Shown here piece by piece: positions 625-61,595 of a DNA stretch of 64,000 bases. The notes under the pieces were generated by a model. It did not search any database and was not told where the DNA came from. It saw only the letters and a program-made list of their open reading frames with translations. The translations under genes and the position numbers were made by a program. The first letter of the stretch is position 1, and each line of letters begins with the position of its first letter. This DNA comes from Candidatus Enterousia intestinigallinarum (GTDB lineage Bacteria; Pseudomonadota; Alphaproteobacteria; Rs-D84), in the NCBI GenBank assembly GCA_018716885.1, contig DVJI01000012.1:175065-239064 (forward strand), in the 5' to 3' direction.

Positions 625-1466
625 AAAACATAATGGGTATAGAATACGGACGCGGCGCCACAGCCGCGATTGTTATTGATGGTGGACCAGCATTGGCACC
701 AGCGGCGGTAAAACAGATGTATCCAGACGCCGACTGGACAACCGTTGTGGCCGATCCATACGATGCAAAATTATGTGAATCCGATCGATTCGGCGAAAAT
801 TTCCAGATTCAAAAAAAGATTGTTGCGGCCACGCCGTTTGAACCCCATATAATGATTGGCGGTGATCATTCCGTAAATTTTGGACACTTTGCCGCATTGG
901 CGGATCGTATGCCCGATGAAGATTTATGTCTGATATATATTGATGCCCATTTGGATATACACACGCCCGAATCATCCCGGGCTGAAGCATCTGGTGCCCC
1001 ACACGGCACAAACGTTCGCGCCCTGTTGGGTGACGGCGATTCGCGTTGGCTGTCGTTGCAGACACGCCGCCCCGCCCTGTATCCTGAAAATATATTTTAC
1101 CTGGGCACACGATCGTTTGAACCGTCGGAAATAAAATTTGCACGGGATAAAAATATTTATATCCGACCCGCGAACGAGCTGCAAACATCGGACGCCTGGG
1201 CAAATGCGGTTGATGAAATCAGACGCAAAATTGGTACGCGTCAATATGTTGTGTCTTTTGATTTTGACGCGATTGACCCACAAGTATTTCACGATGTTCT
1301 GGTACCGGAATCAAACGGAATCAGTGTCGATGCCGCCGAATATTTTGTACGCGCATTTGCCCCCGACGCACACAGTTTTGAATTCGTGGAATACGCCCCA
1401 ACCGGCGACGTACGCAGCGTGGAAATTGTAAAAAAACTGGTTGGTATCGCATTGGATATGGAATAA
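621..1466 (+). CDS. arginase/ureohydrolase family protein
   Basis: GGDHS, DAHLD, HG and SFDFDAIDP metal-binding motifs. Confidence 0.9.
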   Translation: MKNIMGIEYGRGATAAIVIDGGPALAPAAVKQMYPDADWTTVVADPYDAKLCESDRFGENFQIQKKIVAATPFEPHIMIGGDHSVNFGHFAALADRMPDEDLCLIYIDAHLDIHTPESSRAEASGAPHGTNVRALLGDGDSRWLSLQTRRPALYPENIFYLGTRSFEPSEIKFARDKNIYIRPANELQTSDAWANAVDEIRRKIGTRQYVVSFDFDAIDPQVFHDVLVPESNGISVDAAEYFVRAFAPDAHSFEFVEYAPTGDVRSVEIVKKLVGIALDME

Positions 1467-1520
1467 ATCCCCCACACACAACCAAGCAAAGAAACAATCC
1501 CCAAATAAATTGGGGATTGT

Positions 1521-2408
1521 TTAATAAAAACAATGACTATCAAGTTCAAAAGTTCCTTCGGTAGCATTAATAGTCGCATTGCTTGAAATATAACAACCTG
1601 TTATAGATGTATCTCGTGCTAAACGTTTTATATAACCGTCGCCGTATTTTCCTTGATACAACGGACATTTAATGCAACTGGTTGGGCCAAAACCTGAAGA
1701 AACCGGACCATTATAATATCCTGGATTATCATCACACCGATACTCATAAGAACATTTACCTGCTTCGGTACAGGTTACCACTTTTAACAAGCCAGGTTTC
1801 TTATCAGGATCTACGGGCGTGCCCCCCACGACCCATCCTTCACACTGGCTCGCCCGGGTACATTCTCTCGTGTCCTCACAATAAGCCCCCTCAAACGGTC
1901 CATTTATGCATCCATTTATTTCCACATTTTGCAAAACTTGCTTATAACCCGTTTGGCATACATCACAATATTCTATGGGGCCCACCCAACCAAAGTTGTT
2001 TGTACTTAACCATCTGCGTTCACCACTGACACAACCATTTTCATTAGAAATAGGTTCAGTATATCCCCACTCATCATAGCATATATCAGTAGAACTATCA
2101 TTAGCCACACATTCATAGTATTTTAAATCGCCACAGTTTTGCCCCGGCAAGGTTCCGCTGAGTTTCTTGCTATAACCCAATGTACACTCAGCACATTCCC
2201 GATATGCAATGGTTGGTTTTCCGATGCCCGTACCATAACATCGACGGGCAACATCTGGTTTTTCACCAACATTTTGTACCGCACAATTTGCGGGTTCAAG
2301 TGGGCCAATTGTATGAATAGATTCTGGGCACGAGTTCCCATATTGATTTGTTTCCAAACACATCAAAGCATTTGCATTGCTTGCCATACCTAAATACAAA
2401 CACAAACC
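1521..2408 (-). CDS. Cys-rich secreted protein body lacking its own RBS/ATG; completed in frame by inversion of cassette 2409-2494
   Basis: Many Cys. Begins with a signal-peptide h/c region (GLCLYLGMASNANA). C-terminal GCY...EGTFELDSHCFY motif. Confidence 0.8.
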   Translation of the reverse strand, partial: GLCLYLGMASNANALMCLETNQYGNSCPESIHTIGPLEPANCAVQNVGEKPDVARRCYGTGIGKPTIAYRECAECTLGYSKKLSGTLPGQNCGDLKYYECVANDSSTDICYDEWGYTEPISNENGCVSGERRWLSTNNFGWVGPIEYCDVCQTGYKQVLQNVEINGCINGPFEGAYCEDTRECTRASQCEGWVVGGTPVDPDKKPGLLKVVTCTEAGKCSYEYRCDDNPGYYNGPVSSGFGPTSCIKCPLYQGKYGDGYIKRLARDTSITGCYISSNATINATEGTFELDSHCFY

Positions 2409-2494
2409 ACCGTTTTATTTCGGCAAAAATGGAGGATAAAAAAATGCAGAAATCTGGGATTTTTACAAAAATAAAAACACCGATTTTAATCGGT
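2409..2494 (+). promoter_or_regulatory. putative invertible 86-bp RBS/start/signal-peptide cassette, copy 1 (OFF orientation)
   Basis: GGAGG 2431-2435 and ATG 2444 encode MQKSGIFTKIKTPILIG antisense to the gene. Inverted repeat AAACCACCG 2404-2412 / CGGTGGTTT 2491-2499. Near-identical copies at 5587-5672 and 60625-60710. Confidence 0.8.
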
Positions 2495-2517
2495 GGTTTA
2501 TTTTCAGCATTTTTTAT

Positions 2518-2546
2518 ATTATATCCAATATTTCTATATATCGCAA
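2518..2546 (-). promoter_or_regulatory. sigma70-type promoter TTGCGA-17-TATAAT pointing into cassette 1
   Basis: Consensus-like hexamers with 17-bp spacer immediately outside the cassette. Confidence 0.6.
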
Positions 2547-2551
2547 GCAGT

Positions 2552-2746
2552 TTATTCGCCCGCAAATTCCGCGCATAATAAATTATGCCGATAGATATTA
2601 CGCGCCAAATCATCACTGATAACGTACCAGTCATTGGCGCGCCCATAAATCGGCACACACGGCGGGCACGAATTATTCTGCAATGGTGTATTTTTCGCGC
2701 AGGACGCGACGAATATCACACACACCGGTATTAAAAGTTTTCTCAT
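2552..2746 (-). CDS. small lipoprotein, o-spanin (Rz1)-like
   Basis: Lipobox VASC, Pro/Cys-rich, overlaps the 3' end of the upstream TM protein in another frame. Confidence 0.55.
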   Translation of the reverse strand: MRKLLIPVCVIFVASCAKNTPLQNNSCPPCVPIYGRANDWYVISDDLARNIYRHNLLCAEFAGE

Positions 2747-2903
2747 TTATCGCCCCCATTGTTTTTATAATTTCTTGGTTTTGTTTGACGGCAACTTCTG
2801 CGGCACGCGCATTACATTTTTGCGCTGCAACGCGTCCCCCCGCCCAGTACGCACCCACTGCCACAACAACGCATATAAAAAATAAAAAAATATACAGTTT
2901 CAT
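2673..2903 (-). CDS. small membrane protein, i-spanin (Rz)-like
   Basis: N-terminal TM helix followed by an Ala/Gln-rich helical region; overlapped by a lipoprotein gene. Confidence 0.55.
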   Translation of the reverse strand: MKLYIFLFFICVVVAVGAYWAGGRVAAQKCNARAAEVAVKQNQEIIKTMGAINEKTFNTGVCDIRRVLREKYTIAE

Positions 2904-2963
2904 ATCAGATATAAAAAATCCCGCATAGCGGGATTACATTAAATGTTATAAGTTCAAATTGAA

Positions 2964-4232
2964 TTATTGATTCATTGCCGCAAAGAAATCAGCATTTGTT
3001 TTTGTCAGGCGTAATTTATCCAACAGGAATTCCATCGCTTCCAGCGTGCCCATTGGATTGATTATACGGCGCAGGACATACATTTTTGCCAATGTATCCT
3101 TGCCAACCAGCAAATCTTCCTTGCGCGTGCCGGATTTAGTAATATCGATTGCCGGATAAACACGCTTGTCAGACAATTTTCTGTCCAAAATGATTTCGCT
3201 GTTGCCGGTGCCCTTGAACTCTTCAAAAATAACTTCGTCCATTTTTGAACCGGTATCAACCAATGCGGTCGCAATAATGGTCAGCGAACCGCCGCCCTCT
3301 ATATTACGAGCCGCACCAAAGAAACGCTTTGGTCGCTGTAACGCATACGCGTCGACACCACCGGTCAGAACCTTGCCACTGGACGGAACAACCGTATTAT
3401 ACGCACGCCCCAGACGTGTTATAGAATCCAACAGAATAACCACATCCTGGCCGGCTTCTACCAAACGTTTGGCCTTTTCAATAACCATTTCGGCAACCTG
3501 GATATGGCGCGCGGCGGGCTCGTCAAATGTTGACGATATGACTTCGCCCTTTACACTGCGCTGCATATCGGTAACTTCTTCGGGACGTTCATCAATCAAC
3601 AAAACAATCAACTTTACGTCCGGATAATTTGTCGCAATCGAGTGTGCAATATTTTGCAACATAACGGTTTTACCGGTACGCGGGGGCGCAACAATCAAAC
3701 TGCGCTGGCCTTTTCCCGTCGGCGCAATCAGATCGATAACACGTGCGGACAAACTGCGCCCCTTGTCCTTGTCGTCAACGACCTCCATCTTCAGCATTTC
3801 GTCTGGGTACAACGGCGTCATATCATCAAAAGACACACGATGACGCAATTTTTCCGGATCACCACCATTTACACGTTCTATCGTTTCCAACGCGAAATAG
3901 CGTTCAGATTCATTTTGCGGTGCCTGAATTTGTCCCTCGATATAATCACCAGTTTTCAGACCATATTTTTTTATCAGCGCCGGCGACACATACAAATCGT
4001 CCGGGCCAGCCAAATAATTGCTTTCCGGCGCACGCAGGAACCCAAAGCCGTCCGGCATACGTTCCAAAACACCATCACCAATCAAAGTGACCTTGTTATC
4101 TGCGGCAAAGACCCGCATAACCGCAAATCGTAACTGTTGAACATTTAACTGCGCCGGATTTTCAATACCCATATCTTCGGCCATTTTCAACAACTGTTGC
4201 GGCGATTTTGCCTTCAATTCATTTATATGCAT
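2964..4232 (-). CDS. rho: transcription termination factor Rho
   Basis: [41 protein letters not shown] motifs. Confidence 0.99.
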
Positions 4233-4441
4233 AAAAAATCCTTTTTGGAAACGGGGTATAGTGCGAGAATTCGCCCCCCTTGTTGATTTACCCGCTTATT
4301 ATACGCCTTTTTTGACAAAAAGTCAAGTATTGGCAACAAACAATATAAACACAATCGGCAGTACACCGAAACTATTTTCCTTGCATTTTACGGGTTTTAT
4401 TGCTCAAATGATATATAAGATTATAAACAAAGGAAGCGACA

Positions 4442-4906
4442 ATGGCAGGCAGCATAAATAAAGTAATCTTGGTTGGCAACGTGGGTCAGGATCCCCAGGT
4501 TCGCACAATGCAAAGCGGACAGAAAGTGGTCAGTTTTTCACTGGCGACATCAGACCGCTGGCGCGACAGACAAACGGGCGAGCAAAAGGAACAAACCGAA
4601 TGGCATCGTGTTGTAATATTTAACCCAAATTTGGTTGATGTTGCCGAACGTATGTTACAAAAAGGAACGAAGTTGTATCTGGAGGGTTCCCTGCGCACAC
4701 GCAAATGGCAAAATCAACAGGGTATCGACGTTTATACAACCGAAGTTGTTCTGAATCAATTTGCGGGTCAAATGGTAATCTTGGCTGGCGCCAAGAGCTT
4801 GGACGGCGCAGCATCTGGTGGCGATTATGGTCAGCCAGCGGCACCTGCATCAGCCCCACGTGAAGAAATCTCCGTTGCCGACATCGGTGACGACATCCCA
4901 TTTTAA
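4442..4906 (+). CDS. ssb: single-stranded DNA-binding protein
   Basis: INKVILVGN...TEWHRVV, C-terminal DDIPF. Confidence 0.99.
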   Translation: MAGSINKVILVGNVGQDPQVRTMQSGQKVVSFSLATSDRWRDRQTGEQKEQTEWHRVVIFNPNLVDVAERMLQKGTKLYLEGSLRTRKWQNQQGIDVYTTEVVLNQFAGQMVILAGAKSLDGAASGGDYGQPAAPASAPREEISVADIGDDIPF

Positions 4907-4980
4907 TGGAATGGCATCATTATTTAATAATGATGATTTATAATTACACTTATAAAAATCCTGCGAATGCGGGATTTTTA

Positions 4981-5586
4981 TTATTCAGAATAATAACACT
5001 TTTGGGTTAAATCATATATTCCTGTTTCATCGTATATCCCAGTTCCTGGTTCCATATAACAGCCCGTTATATCATCCAAATTGGCTTCACTGCTGGTTGT
5101 TCTATACTGCGACCCCCACAGGTCAATAAAACTGGGGCACTCTTTGCAGCCGATATCCGTACCACCAATGGAAGGCTCATAATAAGTTACATACCATCCT
5201 GATGCACAGGCCCGATCGTCCCCTATTTGAGAAACGGTGCAATATTTTTCCAAATATCCACCAGTAAAAACAAAATGCTTTTTTCTGACCACGCCATCCA
5301 AATATGGATCTGCTTCCCAGTCATATATTGGGAAATTATATTCGCACATGCACACAGAACAACCGGTTTCTTCTGCTTCATAACTGGCTCGGTATACAAA
5401 GGTGTCTTCAGTTGCGGACACAATACAACTAGTATCACTGGAACTGGTGCACATATCCAAGTTATTATATAAAACATTCCATTCTTTATAATCACTGCCA
5501 CAGTTGCAAGTATACTCGGTTGGTTCGTTTGGTGCAGCATTAGACATATTGCATATAAATATTAATGCAATTGCAGAACATAATTG
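4981..5586 (-). CDS. Cys-rich secreted protein body lacking its own RBS/start; completed by inversion of cassette 5587-5672
   Basis: Frame extends 5' of ATG 5547 as QLCSAIALIFICN (h-region) but meets an in-frame TAA inside the cassette. C-terminal GCY..PG...DETGIY....CYY. Confidence 0.8.
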   Translation of the reverse strand, partial: QLCSAIALIFICNMSNAAPNEPTEYTCNCGSDYKEWNVLYNNLDMCTSSSDTSCIVSATEDTFVYRASYEAEETGCSVCMCEYNFPIYDWEADPYLDGVVRKKHFVFTGGYLEKYCTVSQIGDDRACASGWYVTYYEPSIGGTDIGCKECPSFIDLWGSQYRTTSSEANLDDITGCYMEPGTGIYDETGIYDLTQKCYYSE

Positions 5587-5672
5587 ACCGATTTATTTCG
5601 GCAAAAATGGAGGATAAAAAAATGCAGAAATCTGGGATTTTTACAAAAATAAAAACACCGATTTTAATCGGT
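5587..5672 (+). promoter_or_regulatory. putative invertible 86-bp RBS/start/signal-peptide cassette, copy 2 (OFF)
   Basis: GGAGG 5609-5613, ATG 5622; inverted ends ACCGATT 5587-5593 / AATCGGT 5666-5672. Confidence 0.8.
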
Positions 5673-5700
5673 GGTTTATTTTCGGCATTTATTTGATTCT

Positions 5701-5730
5701 ATTTTACCCCAATTTCCACGCCCACGTCAA
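5701..5730 (-). promoter_or_regulatory. promoter TTGACG-18-TAAAAT pointing into cassette 2
   Basis: Same hexamers and GAAATTGGGG spacer end as at 60567-60596. Confidence 0.6.
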
Positions 5731-5814
5731 TTATATTTTTAACATTTTACCCCACCTCACCATGGACAACTTTTTCATCTTGCTTTGCTCAGACACACGC
5801 GGTAACATAATTTT

Positions 5815-6059
5815 GTCGACGGGTGTTCCGTCGATGGGGTGTGGAAACCTCTGCCTAAGCGTCTGAATATAAAAACGCAATGCGCCAAAATGTGCGCACG
5901 TTTTGCAGTATTACGACGAAAAACAAATCTCCTGATTTTCGGGTCAGGAGGGTCGCGAAATACCCAATACGCGGCACAATTCTTAGGATTGTTTCCAACC
6001 TCCTGACCACCAAAGATTTGGTGGTTTTTTGTTTCAACAAAAAATCAGGAGATTGAACT
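5815..6059 (+). ncRNA. c4/CI-like structured leader (antisense-attenuator), copy A
   Basis: Homologous to 14149-14378 and 19764-19960. 5' hairpin, GGAAAC/GTTTCC and CCTAAG/CTTAGG complementary boxes, GGTCAGGAGG/CCTCCTGACC stem, ACCACC/GGTGGT+T terminator; promoter TTGCTT-17-TAACAT at 5780-5808. Confidence 0.65.
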
Positions 6060-6665
6060 ATGAAACATTTTTTACCCTTACTTACCGTCGCCACAATTTC
6101 GGCCGCGTCAGTCATATCTAATGCGTCAGGTATCGTCACCGCCTGTGTTGGAACCCCTGTGTGCCCCACTGGGGCGGGAACCTGTGTGATACTCCGAGCG
6201 CAGGAGCCAACGTGTACATTAGGCGTGATGAGATACTATGACACAACTGGAATATTCTCGTGCAGTCGTTGCGAAACAGGATACGAGCTGACTCAACAAA
6301 GAGCCACTGTTCCAAACTGCTCAAACGAAATATTGTTTAATGTGTGTCGCAAATCTTGTGACGGCACGTGCAGCGATTGTACAACATCGGCCTGGACGGC
6401 CGGCAATACCGGATATCAAAAACGCACATACGCCAGTTGCAATACGGCAACCTGTGTATGCACAAAAAGAACTCAATACCGGTGTGCCGCTGGATATTAT
6501 GGCACATCCAGCAATGGTACGTCCGGGTGCAGCCGCTGTCCCAGTAACGGTTCATCCACTGCGGGCGCAACGGCAATCACGTCGTGTTATTTGCCGTCCG
6601 GCACCACCGGCAGCGACAGTACCGGTTCATATACATATACGTCTAATTGTTATTACAGTAACTAG
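6060..6665 (+). CDS. Cys-rich secreted protein
   Basis: Signal peptide, CAAGYYG/CSRCP motifs, C-terminal SCYLPSG...DSTGSY...CYY. Confidence 0.85.
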   Translation: MKHFLPLLTVATISAASVISNASGIVTACVGTPVCPTGAGTCVILRAQEPTCTLGVMRYYDTTGIFSCSRCETGYELTQQRATVPNCSNEILFNVCRKSCDGTCSDCTTSAWTAGNTGYQKRTYASCNTATCVCTKRTQYRCAAGYYGTSSNGTSGCSRCPSNGSSTAGATAITSCYLPSGTTGSDSTGSYTYTSNCYYSN

Positions 6666-6696
6666 CAACAAAAACGGGGCATATGCCCCGTTTTTA

Positions 6697-9600
6697 TCAG
6701 AACCGATACGATCCTGTTACCTTTATATTATGCAACTGTATCGCGTCATTATATTGATAACGATAATCGATACCGAACTGCAGCCCCACCGCTGACAAGA
6801 ATTCGACGCCGCCACCGATATTAGCCCACAGCGGGTCAATATCAACATCATACTTGGTGTATGTATGTGCCGGTGCGAATTTGTACTTTACGAAGTCCGG
6901 CGCGCCCAACACATCGTATTCAACCCCAATCGACGCATACGGGCGAATCTGGAACCAGGCCGACGGATATATACGCTTTTGTGCAATCAACGAATAACCC
7001 GGTGTCAAAATCAGATATCCATCGGATTGCATATCCATATAATCCTGGCCGGCGGCGTGTTCGGTAACATCAAATCCGAAATTATATCCGACACGCGCAT
7101 ACGCATTGCCGACAATGTACTGATTCAACCAGTCGTGCAGCAAACCCCATTCACTGATAAAGCTGAACGCACTGCCACTGCCGTCGATATGCGACATAAA
7201 TGTCTGGTCGCGTGCGGTATCCAACAAATGGATATCCAGGAACGCGTTTCCATACAGACGCGTCTTTTCGCCCAGAATCTTCATCAAATACCCGCCCAGG
7301 CCGATATTCAAATCATCAACCGTCACATCAACCGTTCCCAACAGCGACTTTCCCGGCAGATACCCCAGTTCAACCGCATCGGAATTATCACTGGACGAAT
7401 TGGATACGCGCGCGGTCAATCCCAGAATCAACGTTTCGGAATCCTGCCAGTCAAAACCGCCGGCAATGCTAAAACGATTACCCTTGGCACGTTTGCCGTC
7501 GGATACGTCCTGGCTAAACATACCGTAATCCGCATCCAACCAGGCCTTTTTCAAATTACGGTTACGATTCCAAATGAATTCGTCGAACATACGGTCTTCG
7601 AAATCACGGAAATTGGTGTGTTCGTTTAACGAAATGTTACCCGCAATTTGTTCCAATTCACGTGCCTGGAACAGACGGCTGAACCGCGCCAATGGATCAC
7701 GTTCACCAGTCATATTATAGTATTCCATACGGTCATACAGTTCATTTGCCATTGTCGCAAAGTTTGTTCCGCGGAATATTTCCGGAATCAATTCAATCGG
7801 CGTATCGTTATAGAATTTTGTATTCAACAACTGACCCGCAATCAAATTGTCCAATGCACCGGCGGAGACATATTCGCCCGTCGTATGATCGGCAACTTCG
7901 GCAACAATCGGCTGAATCTTAAATACTTCAACCGGCCCACCGAAGCGTGGATCAAACACGATATACAAACTGTCTGCGACACCGTCACCGTCCGTATCCC
8001 GTTCCGACAGATATATCGGCAAATCAGAATCGGTTCCATTAAACGCATCAGACGGACGCAATGTATCGGCATAGTCAATGCAAATCGAACCGTCGCCATT
8101 ACAGAACTTTACATCCAAATTGCGCAGTTTATCAAAGCCATCCGAAACATCGATACCCTCTTCTGCGTGCAGCAACCAAATCGCCGTACCGGTATCAACG
8201 GTGTCAAACAGCGTTATCCCAACCTGTGGCTGTGACGCAGCTGAACCATTCACAACACCGGAAACATTTGAAACAAATTTTTCCCCAACGGTAATCATCG
8301 CGGCACCACCAGCGGCATTTGTTATTTCGCCAACTTTGTTGTCGCCGGTAACCTCAACCGTGGACCAATAATTTTGTTTTGATGTATTGCCGGTACCCTC
8401 TTCGTCATACGGCATAATGGCCGCCCACAGGTCGCTGTCATTATTAAACGTATATGTTCCCTTGATATCCAAGCGTTTCAGTCCCCAGAAATCAACCCCG
8501 CCGGAAACATTTCCGTCGATTGTTGCATCAATCCAGGAATCGGGACTGGCCGGATTTTTGGCAAAGCGCAAATCCAACGCGGTCACATCACCCGCAACGT
8601 TTATATCACTGGCATTTATTTGCATACGCCCAGAAACCTGATTTACGCCGGCGACATTAAATTCAGATGCGGTAATTGTATAATCGTCAGAATCAACATT
8701 TACCTCGCCCGCGGAAAGGGTCCCTAAATAATTCTGGTACAGCACGGTATTCTGTGTTGTGAACACGCCATCCGTGGTCAATCCAGCCCCCATCAGTGTT
8801 ATAGTCCCCGCACCCCCCACGGCAAACGTATCAACCGTTGTCACGCCTGCACCGGAATCCAGTGTCAAATTGCCGGTATTTGTAACCTGGGCCAACGTAA
8901 TACCATTATCACTGTGCAGCGCCAATGTGCCGTTATTATCCAAATTAGTTGCGGTAATACCGTCGCCCCCCATATTCAGTTCGGCATCTGTTGCAACCGT
9001 TATATTGCCACCAACTGTAATTGGGCCAGCCACTTCAAACAATGCACTGCCCGCCGTCGCATCATAATTTCCGGTAATGGTAAGCGATTCGGCCGCAAAT
9101 GTCGTATCTGTTGCCAGTAAATTTAATGCCCCGGCCTGCGTGCCCTGTGAAACGTCACCAGTGACAACAACATTTGTCGCGGCAACATTAGCAGTCGCAT
9201 CCGAATCAATATTTACAAATGCACCATTTGCAATATTCAGGCCGCCTATTTGAATATTCGGCAATCCCGTACCATTTGCAGTAATGTTCAGTGTTCCAGA
9301 ATTGGCCATAACATTGCCCATAACCACACGCTGATCCGCGGTCAGGGTTGCTGTTCCAGAATTTGTAACATCACCCAGTGTGATATTTTGCGCGTTTGCA
9401 TTTAATGTACCGGCCGTCAAAACCGCGCCACCAACCGTAACAGCTGACTTTTCCGCGATCAGCTTCAATGTACGCCCAGTGCCCAAATCCAACGCGCCAC
9501 CAATTTCAACCTGAGCCGTATCGGATTTTAACGTTAAATTGGTTGTATCCGCTTCGACAATCAGGCCGTTGTCTGGTTTGTCGGTCAATCCAGTTGCCCC

Positions 9601-36160: not shown

Positions 36161-37996
36161 ATGAAAATTGTACGTACATTTTTAATATTTTGCGCTATCG
36201 CAGTGACCGCATCAAATGCGGGCGCGTTTCAAATTTCGCCACAAACGTCTAATAAAAACTGTACTGACACGGAATACAGAAGACAGCACCCAGAAAAATG
36301 CCCATCTTTTTTGTACACTGCGGCACCGATATTATCGGGTGCAACCGTACTGGGTGGCGCGATCGCACTAATTGGCTTGTCTGGGGCTGCGGGTGGAAGC
36401 GACAGTGCCACGGAATATTACCAGCCCACCCTGGCCGCACCGGACTATGTAGGTGGCGACGTAAGTTCATTACAACTGGCCGCGGTAACATCGGCACCAG
36501 AATACGAAAAAAATCTGACACAGTATAACGACATACGTCTGGCGTATTCTATTGCACGCGGATACACAGGACGCGGCACAATAATTGCCGTTTTGGACGC
36601 TGGTCTGGATTCTTGGCACGGGGCGGCCGTCACGGCCGTGGCCGGTGGTGCCATTGCACCAAACGCAATCGTAAATTCATATAAAATCGCCAATAATCTG
36701 GATTTCGTTTCATACCGTGAAATTGGTGATGCAATCGGACACGCGACAGACGCAAACGTATATAACGCCAGTTGGTCTGTGCCAATGCGTGCAAATGATT
36801 TGCGGTCGCGCAATCAACTGTCAAATCTGACCGATGCAAATTTTGTGAACCAAATGTCCGCGGCAGCCGCGCGCGACGCAATATTTGTATGGGCCGCTGG
36901 CAATGATTCCGACAAACAAAGCAGTGCCCTGTCCGCGATACCAGTTGTAATGCCTGAAATGCGCGGTCACTTTATAAACGTTGTTGCCTGGGACAGCGCA
37001 ACGGGCGCCCTGGCCGAATACAGCAACGCGTGCGGTATAACCGCCAACTGGTGTATAACAGCCCCGGGCAGCAACATAGACACCGGCGCATCAATCGCCA
37101 ACGGCACCAGTTTTGCCACCCCGATAGTATCTGCCGCCGTTGCCGTAATACGCGAAGCATTTCCCTATATGACCGCGCCCCAGATAACAAATTTATTGTT
37201 TGAAACAGCGCGCGATTTGGGCACGCCCGGCGTTGACGCCGTCTACGGTCACGGAATGCTGGATTTGGAACGCGCAACGCGCCCGGTTGGCGCGCCCCTT
37301 GTACCCATAGATGGCGGCGCAATGCAACCATTACAAACGGCGCGTGTATCTGGTGCGATTGCACATAACATAATGGACGCCAACCCGAAATTTGCATACT
37401 TTGACAAATACGGGCGTGCATTTGACGCAAAATTATCAGATGTTATTGAAATAAAAAATCCGGGACTGGGATTTCAGCGTCTGCGCGCAACAGAAGACAT
37501 AAAAATTGCAGAAATTGGAAATTTTGAAATGGGACTGGCCAACAGCGATATCGCCATCGGCGACGGATTTTTGCAAATACGCGACAATAATCTGTTTGGA
37601 TTTGTCGGCACACAAAATGATTTTGAAATCGGGCAATTAAAATTGACCCAGCGCGCCCGCCTGGCGTTCGGGGCGCCACGCGCATCACAAAATTCGATGA
37701 TAAGCAACCTGTCGAACATATATACCGCGTCAATCGATGTATCTGCCAATATCGGCGACTGGTCATTCGGCATATCTGTTCCGGACACGATAATTGGTGG
37801 CACAATGAATTTACACCTGCCAACGGGGCGCGCGGACAACGGCGCCATAATATATAATGATTACGCAGTTGATATGCGTACGCGTCCATCAATCGAATAT
37901 TCTGTATCATATCGAGCTTTTACCGCCAGTTTTGTTGACAATCCATACGGCACGGATGAATTTTTCATTATGACCCGCGGCCGTATAAAGTTCTAG
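36161..37996 (+). CDS. S8 (subtilisin-like) secreted serine peptidase
   Basis: Triad motifs VLDAG, HG, GTSFATP; AAGN oxyanion hole; YGHG.LD. Confidence 0.92.
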   Translation: MKIVRTFLIFCAIAVTASNAGAFQISPQTSNKNCTDTEYRRQHPEKCPSFLYTAAPILSGATVLGGAIALIGLSGAAGGSDSATEYYQPTLAAPDYVGGDVSSLQLAAVTSAPEYEKNLTQYNDIRLAYSIARGYTGRGTIIAVLDAGLDSWHGAAVTAVAGGAIAPNAIVNSYKIANNLDFVSYREIGDAIGHATDANVYNASWSVPMRANDLRSRNQLSNLTDANFVNQMSAAAARDAIFVWAAGNDSDKQSSALSAIPVVMPEMRGHFINVVAWDSATGALAEYSNACGITANWCITAPGSNIDTGASIANGTSFATPIVSAAVAVIREAFPYMTAPQITNLLFETARDLGTPGVDAVYGHGMLDLERATRPVGAPLVPIDGGAMQPLQTARVSGAIAHNIMDANPKFAYFDKYGRAFDAKLSDVIEIKNPGLGFQRLRATEDIKIAEIGNFEMGLANSDIAIGDGFLQIRDNNLFGFVGTQNDFEIGQLKLTQRARLAFGAPRASQNSMISNLSNIYTASIDVSANIGDWSFGISVPDTIIGGTMNLHLPTGRADNGAIIYNDYAVDMRTRPSIEYSVSYRAFTASFVDNPYGTDEFFIMTRGRIKF

Positions 37997-38628
37997 GCAA
38001 CTTCATTATTCGCCACCTGTTCTGGTATATCGGACACCAAACCGCGTTCTTCAATAAACTTTGACAAAGTATCCCGATGCACCCGCAAACGCCGTGCAAT
38101 TTCCTTTTTTTTACTGCCGTCGGCTAATTTTTGAACAATATATTTCTCACGTCCTTCTAACTTGCAGGCATTGCGACTGCCCTGGGGGCGGCCGACACGT
38201 TTACCTTCGGCACGAACACGGGCCAATGCTTCCTTGGTTCGTTGCGAAATCAAATTGCGTTCAATTTCCGCAGACAACCCGAACGCAAAGGCCAAAACTT
38301 TACTGGTTATATCAGACCCCAACCGATAATTATCCTTTATCGTCCATATTCGCGCACCAATGTTCATACAATGATGCAAAATACTCATTATTTGTAATAA
38401 ATTACGCCCAAGCCGTGACAGCTCGGACGCAATTATTAAATCATCTTTTTGAATTCTTTTTATCAACCGTCCTAATTTTCTTTTATTCAGGTCTTTGGTC
38501 GCGGAAATAGTTTCTTCTATCCAACAATCGATTACCAAGTCCTGCTTTTCACAAAACTTTTGGATTTCAAATCGCTGATTTTCCGTTGTTTGGTGGTCAG
38601 TCGACACACGTATATAGCCATATATCAC
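37993..38628 (-). CDS. serine DNA invertase, Mpi (multiple promoter invertase) family
   Basis: YGYIRVST catalytic motif, Q..ENQRFEI, SELSRLGRNL, WTIKDNYRLG.DI.SKVLAFAFGLSAEIERNLISQRTKEALAR (recognised as Mpi-like), C-terminal HTH; GTG start with AAGGAG. Confidence 0.9.
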   Translation of the reverse strand: MIYGYIRVSTDHQTTENQRFEIQKFCEKQDLVIDCWIEETISATKDLNKRKLGRLIKRIQKDDLIIASELSRLGRNLLQIMSILHHCMNIGARIWTIKDNYRLGSDITSKVLAFAFGLSAEIERNLISQRTKEALARVRAEGKRVGRPQGSRNACKLEGREKYIVQKLADGSKKKEIARRLRVHRDTLSKFIEERGLVSDIPEQVANNEVA

Positions 38629-59829: not shown

Positions 59830-60510
59830 CTATTCCTCATAATGGCAATTACCATTTACAATCTGAAATTTTCCATTGCTGTCACCAGAATATGTATTTA
59901 CTGGTATATAGCAAGCCCCAATATTCAATGGACATAAATTTGGATCTGTCATACCTGGTATCATCATCATAATTCCACCTTCTGGTTGAGAATACCTTTT
60001 ATAATTCGGGCATTCTGGACAAGTGTATTCTGTTATCATTCCTGTCAATCCGGGGGCCATATAAGTATTTGTTACAGGATAATGCATTACATTGCAGCAG
60101 ACACTTACACCATCTGAACAAGTTGCATTTTCTGGACATTCAGCACACCGCATAGCCGACCCGCCACCGACACTGGTTCTATAGTACCCATCGGGATTAC
60201 AGCGATATACACACGTTCCATCTTCGGCAGCTGAATCACATTGCGTTTGTAATCCATTACCAATGTCTTTCCAGGATGGTCCAAAATATCCCTCGCAAGA
60301 TTGCCCTTTGCACGCAGTAATAATAACGCTGCCGCCACCGCAATACGCATCACACTGGCTAGACGATGGCGCACAACACACATCCTGGCCAATTTGTACT
60401 GTACCGCAGACCACCCACCCAATACCAGGACAGTTATTCAGGGATGTCGTCGCCATTGCACCAGATGTAATCATTATACCAGCAAATAAAATAAACCATT
60501 TCATAACCAT
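59830..60510 (-). CDS. Cys-rich secreted protein
   Basis: RBS GGAAAGGA, signal peptide, C-terminal ACYIP.N...DSNGKF....NCHY. Confidence 0.85.
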   Translation of the reverse strand: MVMKWFILFAGIMITSGAMATTSLNNCPGIGWVVCGTVQIGQDVCCAPSSSQCDAYCGGGSVIITACKGQSCEGYFGPSWKDIGNGLQTQCDSAAEDGTCVYRCNPDGYYRTSVGGGSAMRCAECPENATCSDGVSVCCNVMHYPVTNTYMAPGLTGMITEYTCPECPNYKRYSQPEGGIMMMIPGMTDPNLCPLNIGACYIPVNTYSGDSNGKFQIVNGNCHYEE

Positions 60511-60566
60511 ATTCCTTTCCCTTTGCGCCGAAAACAAACGGTCGATAAGGAACGTCAAAAATGGTG

Positions 60567-60596
60567 TTGACGCAGACGCAGAAATTGGGGTAAAAT
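60567..60596 (+). promoter_or_regulatory. promoter TTGACG-18-TAAAAT pointing into cassette 3
   Basis: Conserved with 5701-5730. Confidence 0.6.
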
Positions 60597-60624
60597 GAAA
60601 TTAAACAAATGCCGAAAATAAACC

Positions 60625-60710
60625 ACCGATAAAAATCGGTGTTTTTATTTTTGTAAAAATCCCTGATTTCTGCATTTTTTTACTCCCCATTTTTGCCGAA
60701 AAAAATCGGT
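60625..60710 (-). promoter_or_regulatory. putative invertible 86-bp RBS/start/signal-peptide cassette, copy 3 (OFF)
   Basis: Minus-strand GGGGAG + ATG (60675) encoding MQKSGIFTKIKTPIFIG; ends ACCGAT 60625-60630 / ATCGGT 60705-60710. Confidence 0.8.
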
Positions 60711-61595
60711 CAGTTTTGTACGGCATTTATTTCGGGATTATTGATTACATCAACCAGTATTGCGACCCCCGGTGTTACAGATGCTGGCCAGTATAGTAAT
60801 ACCTGCGAACAGCAAACTTGCGATGTTATTACCCATCCACAACAAGATACTTCGGGTACCCTACCCGCAAGTATCGTCGAATGTGCAACCGGGACAGATC
60901 TTTGCTATTCATCCGGTTATATGGGGAATTTAAGTGGCCACAGAAAAACATCTTGTACCAGTTGTCCATCTGGCTATGAGTTAAAAGAAGTATCTGGCGT
61001 ATCAACAAAGCAACGTGATTGTCGCGTAACATATAATATATGCGTTGCCGAACCAGAAGATCCATTGGAAAACTGTCCATCAAATTGCAAATATGCAACC
61101 TGGACCACCGACACCAGCCAGGTCGGTCGTCAAAAACGCTGCAATACAACAAATGGCAAGTGTGAATACAGATGCATTCCGAATTTTTATGATGCGTCCG
61201 CACTTACTGGTGGAACATATTGCCGCCCGTGTCCAGATAATGTGCTGGCCGAAGCTTGTTCAGGATATGATGTAGAATACGGTACATTATGCTGTGAACG
61301 TGGGTATTATATGCAGACCGAAGAAAAATCTACATCATCTGGCGGCATTATAATAGGTACAAGATATTATGACGTTACTTGCCCGCGTTGTCCGTCGTTG
61401 GGCGGAGTGTACGGAACGACACCGATAAATACGTGTGTAAGCTCTGTTACTGCCTGTTATATACCGGCAAACACGTCGATTCGTGACACAGTCGGCACAT
61501 ATCAGTTCACCAGCAACTGTAGATATACCACAACCGGAACAAGCACAGGTACCATAACACCAGTTCAACCAGGTACAGTTGTCGGAACAAATTAG
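60711..61595 (+). CDS. Cys-rich secreted protein body; completed by inversion of cassette 60625-60710 (ORF-track TTG start at 60693 has no RBS)
   Basis: Begins QFCTAFISGLLITSTSIA (h/c region); C-terminal ACYIPAN...DTVGTY....CRY. Confidence 0.8.
   Translation, partial: QFCTAFISGLLITSTSIATPGVTDAGQYSNTCEQQTCDVITHPQQDTSGTLPASIVECATGTDLCYSSGYMGNLSGHRKTSCTSCPSGYELKEVSGVSTKQRDCRVTYNICVAEPEDPLENCPSNCKYATWTTDTSQVGRQKRCNTTNGKCEYRCIPNFYDASALTGGTYCRPCPDNVLAEACSGYDVEYGTLCCERGYYMQTEEKSTSSGGIIIGTRYYDVTCPRCPSLGGVYGTTPINTCVSSVTACYIPANTSIRDTVGTYQFTSNCRYTTTGTSTGTITPVQPGTVVGTN

Follow-up and report, generated by a model that had tools for sequence, protein, structure and literature searches.

The 64,000-nucleotide (nt) stretch of Candidatus Enterousia intestinigallinarum DNA analysed here (the window) holds three genes for cysteine (Cys)-rich secreted proteins that lack a translation start of their own, and each of them adjoins a copy of a small cassette carrying a Shine-Dalgarno (SD) sequence, an ATG and the first 15-17 codons of a signal peptide on the opposite strand. 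It belongs to a genome of 919 kb in 13 contigs (G000; 0.92 Mb; completeness 98%) from a lineage of uncultured Alphaproteobacteria of the order Rs-D84, near Ca. Enterousia, and the sequencing runs holding window DNA (at least 20, from 7 studies) are mostly chicken gut metagenomes. The features of the three loci are the following; lengths are in nt, base pairs (bp) or amino acids (aa).

1521-2414, minus strand: copy 1 target gene, a Cys-rich secreted-protein gene without its own SD or ATG, open from NGGLCLYLGMASNANA followed by LMC..., 297 codons.
2404-2423: copy 1 gene-proximal inverted repeat, AAACCACCGTTTTATTTCGG, 16/22 complementary to the other arm.
2424-2479, plus strand: copy 1 cassette interior, with SD GGAGGA (2431-2436), ATG (2444-2446) and codons MQKSGIFTKIKT; it faces away from the gene (OFF).
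2480-2499: copy 1 promoter-proximal inverted repeat, CCGATTTTAATCGGTGGTTT; on the minus strand a terminator-like hairpin (2495 to 2478) and then TTTTTATTTT, fold z-score -3.8.
2518-2546, minus strand: copy 1 sigma-70-like promoter, TTGCGA-17-TATAAT, outside the invertible segment and pointing at cassette and gene (10/12 matches, consensus scan).
4981-5592, minus strand: copy 2 target gene, no SD or ATG upstream of the h-region, open from IGQLCSAIALIFICNMSNA followed by AP..., 203 codons.
5582-5677, plus strand: copy 2 cassette with both repeats (arms 5582-5601 and 5658-5677, 14/22 complementary), ATG at 5622, OFF.
5701-5730, minus strand: copy 2 promoter-like site, TTGACG-18-TAAAAT (10/12 matches, consensus scan).
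60567-60596, plus strand: copy 3 promoter-like site, TTGACG-18-TAAAAT (10/12 matches, consensus scan).
60620-60715, minus strand: copy 3 cassette with both repeats (arms 60620-60639 and 60696-60715, 12/22 complementary), ATG the complement of 60673-60675, OFF.
60624-60641, plus strand: copy 3 hairpin, then TTTTTATTTT.
60693-61595, plus strand: copy 3 target gene, started by gene callers at the in-frame TTG at 60693 (MPKKIGQFC...); its h-region begins at 60705.

An initial annotation, made from the letters of the window, had described one segment recurring at three sites between an intact promoter and a start-less Cys-rich gene, with SD, ATG and leader on the strand opposite to the gene and all copies OFF; direct reading and a search with the cassette core bear this out at all three. 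The 41-nt core (the ATG and 12 codons) lies at 2444-2484 (plus strand, 0 mismatches), 5622-5662 (plus, 0) and 60635-60675 (minus, 1), where chance would yield none (100 shuffles). Each copy consists, in this order, of a gene-side repeat arm, an SD (GGAGGA or GGGGAG), an ATG 8 nt beyond it, the leader codons MQKSGIFTKIKTPI(L/F)IG and a second arm with the sequence CCGATTTT(A/T)ATCGGTGGTTT. About 55 bp are flanked in this way by two imperfect inverted repeats of ~15-22 nt with the core (AAACC)ACCGAT...ATCGGT(GGTTT). The inverted ACCG...CGGT ends that had been noticed are real and belong to these longer repeats, complementary at 16/22, 14/22 and 12/22 positions in copies 1, 2 and 3; the length of 86 bp had to be revised, the unit with both repeats measuring ~96 bp (2404-2499 in copy 1).

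On the gene side, the copy 3 gene is open from the h-region-like stretch IGQFCTAFISGLLITSTSIA and has no ATG with an SD, while at copies 1 and 2 a TAA stands between the TTG and the gene and the upstream frame is closed. Inversion of the cassette would join leader and gene in frame at all three loci, as had been proposed, because the (I/N)G codons are common to cassette and gene, and natural ON proteins (see below) add proof for copies 1 and 3. In the present orientation the open reading frame (ORF) of the cassette itself runs for 22-44 codons and stops within the promoter region, so that, unlike a shufflon, the OFF orientation yields no alternative functional coding segment.

All promoter-like sites aimed at the genes lie outside the segment, 19-24 nt from the promoter-side repeat, and its interior holds SD and ATG. 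Judged by consensus matches, a promoter-like site (10/12 matches) is directed through the cassette at each gene, in agreement with the initial annotation, and the segment does not carry the promoter, as it does in the fimS, hin and Bacteroides capsule type of switch. As a separate observation, a conserved intergenic module of ~80 bp (...TTTTACCCCAA...GTCAACA...TTGACG...) lies between divergent family genes at five loci (window 5690-5760 and 60540-60620; G000 C10:44012, C10:245154 and C13:11903, where C denotes a contig of this genome). It bears TTGACG-18-TAAAAT on one strand, and on the other a half-element, an SD and the ATG of the second family gene.

The arm next to the promoter has a further property. 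In the OFF orientation it reads CACCGAT-N4-ATCGGTG and then UUUUUAUUUU, a U-run in the transcript, and the three OFF leaders fold better than their shuffles (z-scores -3.7, -3.8 and -5.8), whereas in a native ON-type leader the hairpin is weak, a U-run is lacking and the SD is free (z-score -0.45). The U-run is the complement of AAAAATAAAAA, which encodes KIK in alignment columns that vary little or not at all. With a hairpin and U-run behind the promoter, OFF-state transcripts probably end at the promoter-proximal hairpin. The cwpV switch of Clostridioides difficile reportedly works by orientation-dependent termination between a fixed promoter and the gene, with no start codon in the segment and a tyrosine recombinase; our cassettes would resemble it in that termination between fixed promoter and gene depends on orientation.

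The strongest evidence that the segment inverts comes from proteins in other assemblies. The three window genes were searched against a collection of 5.8 billion proteins, and the 90%-identity clusters to which they belong were opened. Within these clusters both orientations of a locus occur, at the protein level and across assemblies, for five genes. The protein P0051 (312 aa, 4 contigs) begins MQKSGIFTKIKTPILIGGLCLYLGMASNANALMC, which is the predicted copy 1 fusion letter for letter; it starts MQKSGIFTKIKTPILIGGLCLYLG... and is 89.1% identical to the copy 1 gene over 294 aa, whereas the OFF members of the same cluster, P0037 and P0047, start MYLGMASNANA or MASNANA. In the copy 3 cluster, the ON protein P0012 (311 aa, from a 253,560-bp contig) begins MQKSGIFTKIKTPIFIGQFCTAFISG, also given as MQKSGIFTKIKTPIFIGQFC... 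and MQKSGIFTKIKTPIFIGQFCTAFISGLLITSTSIATP, and shares 97.6% identity with the gene in the window; the OFF form P0006 is the window's own form, MPKKIGQFC... from TTG, found on 20 contigs. The remaining ON proteins are P0032, paired with P0003 (97.2% identity), P0125 and P0126, both paired with P0042, a read-through form (97.1% and 97.4%, respectively), and P0043, whose OFF counterpart P0141 is 99.3% identical to it (295/297). The Cys-rich fusion genes of ON type predicted by the initial annotation, which was to stand or fall with proteins beginning MQKSGIFTKIK..., therefore do exist: P0051, P0012 and other ON genes were found in other assemblies. ON is the minority state: among the listed members of the copy 3 cluster, one ON contig stands against 40 contigs of 300-aa members, of which P0001 and P0006 were read as sequences and the others taken as OFF by their length.

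The ON junction shares only ~9 nt with any OFF sequence (as read for copy 1), an overlap from which a k-mer assembler should not create the junction, and an origin of the ON junctions as assembly artefacts is accordingly unlikely, judging by the letters at the junction. Furthermore, the ON leader is a variant of the cassette at the same locus: ...TPIF is common to P0012 and copy 3, ...TPIL to P0051 and copy 1, and the MQKM leader to P0125, P0126 and the cassette beside that gene in the species representative G080. This favours local flipping over an exchange between loci.

The cassette is not peculiar to the window. A profile of the element found 21 places in the genome, among them eight OFF cassettes beside start-less family genes (C4, C7, three on C10 and three on C13), scattered over at least four contigs, and all 8/8 are in frame through repeat-encoded (I/N)G or NV codons. 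One further place is a fused leader-gene, MQKSGIFTKIKPSLLIGQFCTAILV... (C10:245066), whose far arm has decayed; the cassette is thus the dispersed module that had been suspected, with eight OFF copies and one fused ON copy in this genome. Other places comprise one degenerate copy with a GTG beside a gene with its own ATG, three copies without a start codon, and several half-elements, each within the 5′ leader of a family gene that has its own start. At C10:245179, upstream of a fixed gene, the same promoter module is followed by AAACCACCGAT joined to TTTTTTCGGCAAAAATGGGGG-ATG, and this is the predicted ON 5′ junction. On C7 a start-less family gene (..KTNVGFFMPILLYTFPASA..) adjoins a divergent cassette in the OFF state (C7:34313-34424) with a different leader, MSVKTIKTQIIKIGNIIV.

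The gene family numbers 25 ORFs in this genome, with 5.6-11% Cys and a common C-terminal ...G.Y......C.Y.. motif; eight are cassette-controlled, one is fused and 16 have ordinary starts. With 8 of the 25 genes carrying a cassette, the cell could vary which of these proteins are exported.

For the relatives, 100 other genomes of the genus were searched with a sequence model, and one locus per genome was examined at 30 loci. Strong matches to the cassette (E up to 1e-9) were found in 30/100 genomes, with up to 24 model matches per genome (24 in G045). A script flagged these 30 loci (L numbers) as 19 OFF beside an opposite ORF (one of them, L067, beside a gene with its own ATG), five fused and six without an ATG. 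On re-reading the five, L065 and L073 proved to be OFF, L063 was a fixed fusion with a decayed arm, and L086 and L088 were ON elements with a 16-of-17 arm and a perfect 13-nt arm, respectively. The two ON elements, in two other species, have repeats complementary at 13-17 aligned positions and precede unrelated proteins, a 428-aa ORF at L086 and a 525-aa ORF at L088.

The repeats differ between species and match within the element, for example CCAATTAGATTAGGCA in L076, CACCCTTTGGATTAGGCATA in L084 and AACGTTTATTTTCGGCAAAATT in L078, and six relatives (L064, L030, L076, L077, L084 and L089) have near-perfect repeats (21-22/22, up to 23-24 nt in L064 and L084). Co-variation was measured in an alignment of 44 elements with 22 pairs (953 cells), G-T counting as a pair; the set consists of kin sequences, and two of its rows are reverse-strand hits of palindromic elements. 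Complementary cells made up 76.4% of the total, a value reached by 0/500 shuffles and falling to at most 45.8% when the partner arm was slid, and cells changed on both sides numbered 68 against 36.5 expected (0/500 shuffles). The element therefore has the inverted repeats of an inverton, complementary at 12-16/22 positions in the window and at 21-22/22 in six relatives, with co-variation above that of 500 shuffles.

The genome also encodes site-specific recombinases: two tyrosine recombinases of Xer-like type, one small serine recombinase (211 aa), one serine recombinase of 531 aa whose contig has a lower GC content, and a fragment. The small serine recombinase is the only enzyme of its class in the genome and lies within the window.

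37993-38628, minus strand: gene for the candidate invertase, a small serine recombinase (211 aa) belonging to the 'master DNA invertase' (Mpi) family (PF00239, E 8e-32; NF009949), with orthologues in the genus.

It scores 307.9 bits against NF009949, above the curated equivalog cut-off of 272 (E 3e-92, covering positions 1-197 of 211 aa), and is 61-68% identical to Bacteroidales and Treponema records. Orthologues (E up to 1e-99) occur in 36/100 genomes of the genus; 29/30 cassette-rich genomes have one, seven genomes have the enzyme without a strong cassette and 63 have neither. The Mpi-family protein is most likely the enzyme that flips the cassettes. Many genomes of the genus without a close orthologue carry 1-5 paralogous small serine recombinases of ~45-55% identity, several of them with in-frame stops.

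Taken together, these data suggest the following switch. A promoter would be fixed outside the segment, and the segment itself would supply SD and ATG together with a positively charged n-region for a Sec signal peptide. In the OFF state no SD or ATG would precede the h-region, and the transcript would meet the promoter-proximal repeat as a hairpin with a U-run. After a recombinase had flipped the segment, SD, ATG and 15 codons would be joined in frame through (I/N)G to the h- and c-regions, giving a complete signal peptide with three Lys in its first 13 residues, a hydrophobic core and then an AxA-like c-region; by the same movement the U-run would leave the promoter side and the terminator would be removed. 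We put the probability that each locus is a small inverton with a translation-initiation region as its payload at roughly 0.85. In kind, this is an inverton variant, dispersed gene by gene, that carries a translation start and signal n-region in place of a promoter. Phase variation by inversion of ribosome-binding site (RBS), start and n-region, as first proposed, is supported by the ON/OFF pairs and by the co-variation of the repeats; a mixture of states within one sample was not observed among the Logan contigs aligned. Flipping would be frequent and reversible in the population, and the proteins are presumably exposed on the cell surface.

A broader reading, to which we would give slightly less than even odds, is that a single Mpi-type invertase runs up to about two dozen start-plus-terminator invertons per 0.9-Mb genome and so displays a changing subset of the ~25 Cys-rich proteins, with a cassette portable to any exported gene.

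Several observations weigh against the inverton interpretation, and some of them could be explained if the orientation differences were rare fixed rearrangements between strains and the OFF genes decaying or silent paralogues. The repeats of the window are weak (12-16/22 complementary positions). The eight loci of this genome are OFF, and so is every cassette that was read in G080 and G099, both of them species representatives, as are two further loci (L041 and L042) from one ENA assembly, found by a DNA search of metagenome contigs. The cluster of the copy 2 gene has 37 members, and the 15 that were listed include no ON form. We aligned Logan contigs of four runs from four studies (X4, X5, X9 and X12) to positions 1000-7000 of the window, and among the pieces listed there were no flipped contigs and no strand-change joint at 2404-2499 or 5582-5677; contigs that span the gene-side repeat with 31 nt or more (copies 1 and 2, in 2/4 runs, X12 and X9) are OFF, and no within-sample mixture was seen. 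Logan contigs are assembled, with rare variants dropped from them, and the presence of many cassette copies makes contigs end within the cassette; the absence of flipped contigs is no evidence against flipping. Searches for relatives of the ON loci, with P0051 in genome contigs and with P0012 in metagenome contigs, found none. As to the enzyme, the association of recombinase and cassette tracks the clade and is therefore consistent with the assignment and not independent evidence for it, and the Xer-like pair is the less likely alternative. Nevertheless, ON/OFF pairs occur at five or more genes with identities of up to 99.3%, the OFF genes keep long open frames with an in-frame junction at 8/8 loci, the repeats co-vary across species and an Mpi-family invertase is conserved in genomes of 0.9 Mb, so that we regard fixed rearrangement as quite unlikely.

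The near-identity of repeats and cassette at many loci, in both chromosomal orientations, would also suit an exchange between loci of the vsa and mba kind, in which recombination between cassettes moves an active promoter-plus-leader by large inversions, and P0026 and P0027 carry a ...KPSLL variant that belongs to a different gene in G000. Against this, in three comparisons the ON leader is a variant of that same gene's cassette, and no single shared expression site was found or is needed: each OFF gene has its own cassette, and its own promoter-like site in the case of the three window genes. We therefore hold exchange as the general mechanism to be very unlikely. The ...KPSLL leader is that of the fixed fused gene at C10:245066, and in P0026 and P0027 it is joined to a copy 3-type gene, a distribution that hints at occasional leader exchange between loci.

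A different objection is that the genes might be expressed as they stand, from a TTG, GTG or ATG in the gene-side repeat, the element being a unit like a miniature inverted-repeat transposable element (MITE) or a bidirectional terminator and its ORF incidental. Four of the 8 OFF loci in this genome, copy 3 among them, have an in-frame TTG giving MPKKIG..., an ATG takes its place in some relatives and ATG or GTG occurs in several, gene callers use such starts, and terminal repeats, hairpins with T-runs and ATG-less variants (C13:102895, C10:55820, C11:33942; L084 and others) are all seen. The genes at the four TTG loci may accordingly not be fully silent, OFF at copy 3 perhaps meaning "low", and since gene callers adopt these starts the switch at some loci may be a toggle between two N-termini and not a strict ON/OFF. 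As a complete explanation it nevertheless seems extremely unlikely to us: a TAA separates TTG and gene at copies 1 and 2, these starts lack an SD (in its place stands the complement of the cassette SD), 8/8 OFF copies are in frame with their neighbour, natural ON fusions exist and the leader is conserved as protein.

Two observations touch on the same sequences. On the gene strand the gene-side repeat reads TTG, GTG or ATG and then CCG or CCT AA, an in-frame alternative start without an SD (MPKKIG..., MPNLNG...), at window 60693-60710, at G000 C4:19299, C13:11983 and C13:19443, and in the relatives L069, L070, L072, L073, L081 and L087. The ATG-less elements (C13:102895-103005, C10:55820-55916 and C11:33942-34048; L084 in G045 and others) have as their interior a GC-rich hairpin beside an A/T run and might be invertible terminators before genes with their own starts.

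Known inversion systems share single traits with these cassettes; the comparisons rest on excerpts of the sources cited. The Mpi protein of Bacteroides fragilis is a global invertase of many dispersed promoter segments (PMC4611039, PMC12632263), and the present case resembles it in having one small serine recombinase (NF009949) away from its presumed targets and many short dispersed segments before genes for surface molecules; there the segment carries the promoter, whereas here the promoter-like sites lie outside and SD, ATG and n-region inside, and the host, with its genome of 0.9 Mb, is an alphaproteobacterium. In the mpl system of Mycoplasma penetrans each of 30 genes has its own small invertible promoter with 12-bp repeats (PMC3047005, citing Horino et al.). 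One small module per gene, repeated over a family, and short variable repeats are common to both systems, but mpl has a promoter payload and a tyrosine recombinase, against a translation start and a candidate serine recombinase here. Closest in what is supplied are M. pulmonis vsa and Ureaplasma parvum mba/UU172, where inversion places a promoter, an RBS and the 5′ end of an ORF before a silent 3′ gene (PMC3047005) and, as in our case, genes without them receive a start codon and the 5′ end of a signal peptide; those systems have one expression site with its promoter in a cluster, whereas here each gene has its own promoter and its own 55-bp leader, which would flip in place, at loci on at least four contigs. 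Partial intergenic invertons, with one repeat in a coding sequence (CDS) and the other outside, were described by Chanin et al. (PMC10028968) and Milman et al. (PMC9881135). Their cases are mostly shufflon-like and long and swap alternative coding segments, and Milman et al. (PMC9881135) admitted only CDS pairs and repeats of 22 bp or more; our cassettes have no alternative exon, only a dead-end ORF of 22-44 aa in the OFF state.

In the parts covered of the literature on intragenic invertons, programmed inversions and expression-site systems, no per-gene inverton with a translation start and signal n-region as payload is described, the supplementary inverton lists of PMC10028968 and PMC9881135, which may hold similar cases, lying outside that search. 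A paper on these reduced genomes (PMC12306168) makes no mention of phase variation, invert, recombinase or cysteine.

Inversion switches are usually sought as flipped promoters or swapped coding segments, and a cassette that flips only RBS, start codon and signal n-region is easily overlooked. In the majority orientation gene callers give truncated, oddly started or read-through proteins, one gene standing in the databases as 288, 292, 312 and 340 aa, and inverton finders that require repeats of at least 22 bp would miss the cassette. Such control extends to about a third of a secreted family of 25 members, in a gut lineage that is uncultured and metabolically dependent, and this points to strong pressure from a host, a partner cell or phages. 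The lifestyle of the lineage could be approached by counting reads of each orientation in the gut metagenomes already available from chickens, ruminants and humans. If the enzyme assignment holds, Mpi-type global invertases reach beyond the Bacteroidales; if the master-invertase reading is true, the system would be a bacterial counterpart of variant-surface-protein systems.

Searches on the proteins and on the cassette gave little to name them by. For four Cys-rich proteins Pfam returned no family at E up to 0.01, and for six a limit of E 10 yielded no meaningful hit. The Atlas model of P0006 has only weak structural neighbours, some Ephrin_rec_like ones among them, with template modelling scores by query no higher than 0.33. 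AlphaFold2 on P0051 (19 sequences) gave a beta-hairpin-rich model with a mean predicted local distance difference test score of 63.1, for which Foldseek found no match in the PDB at E up to 0.001 (best E 0.23). Given this weak evidence we leave the fold of the Cys-rich proteins unnamed. Rfam gave no family for the cassette at gathering score, with sub-threshold small RNA matches of 17-33 bits against cut-offs of 40-97.

The leader is not confined to the Cys-rich family: at L063 (G017:C5, 1174-1575, minus strand) the leader MQKSGIFGKIKTAITNGGLDSA is permanently fused to a hydrophobic protein of 133 aa that is not Cys-rich. That this protein is a pilin was considered and dropped, Pfam giving no family at E up to 0.1. 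Within the window, two family members with ordinary starts and signal peptides lie beside cassette-controlled genes, at 59833-60510 (minus strand, MVMKWFILFAG...) and at 6060-6665 (plus strand, MKHFLPLLTV...).

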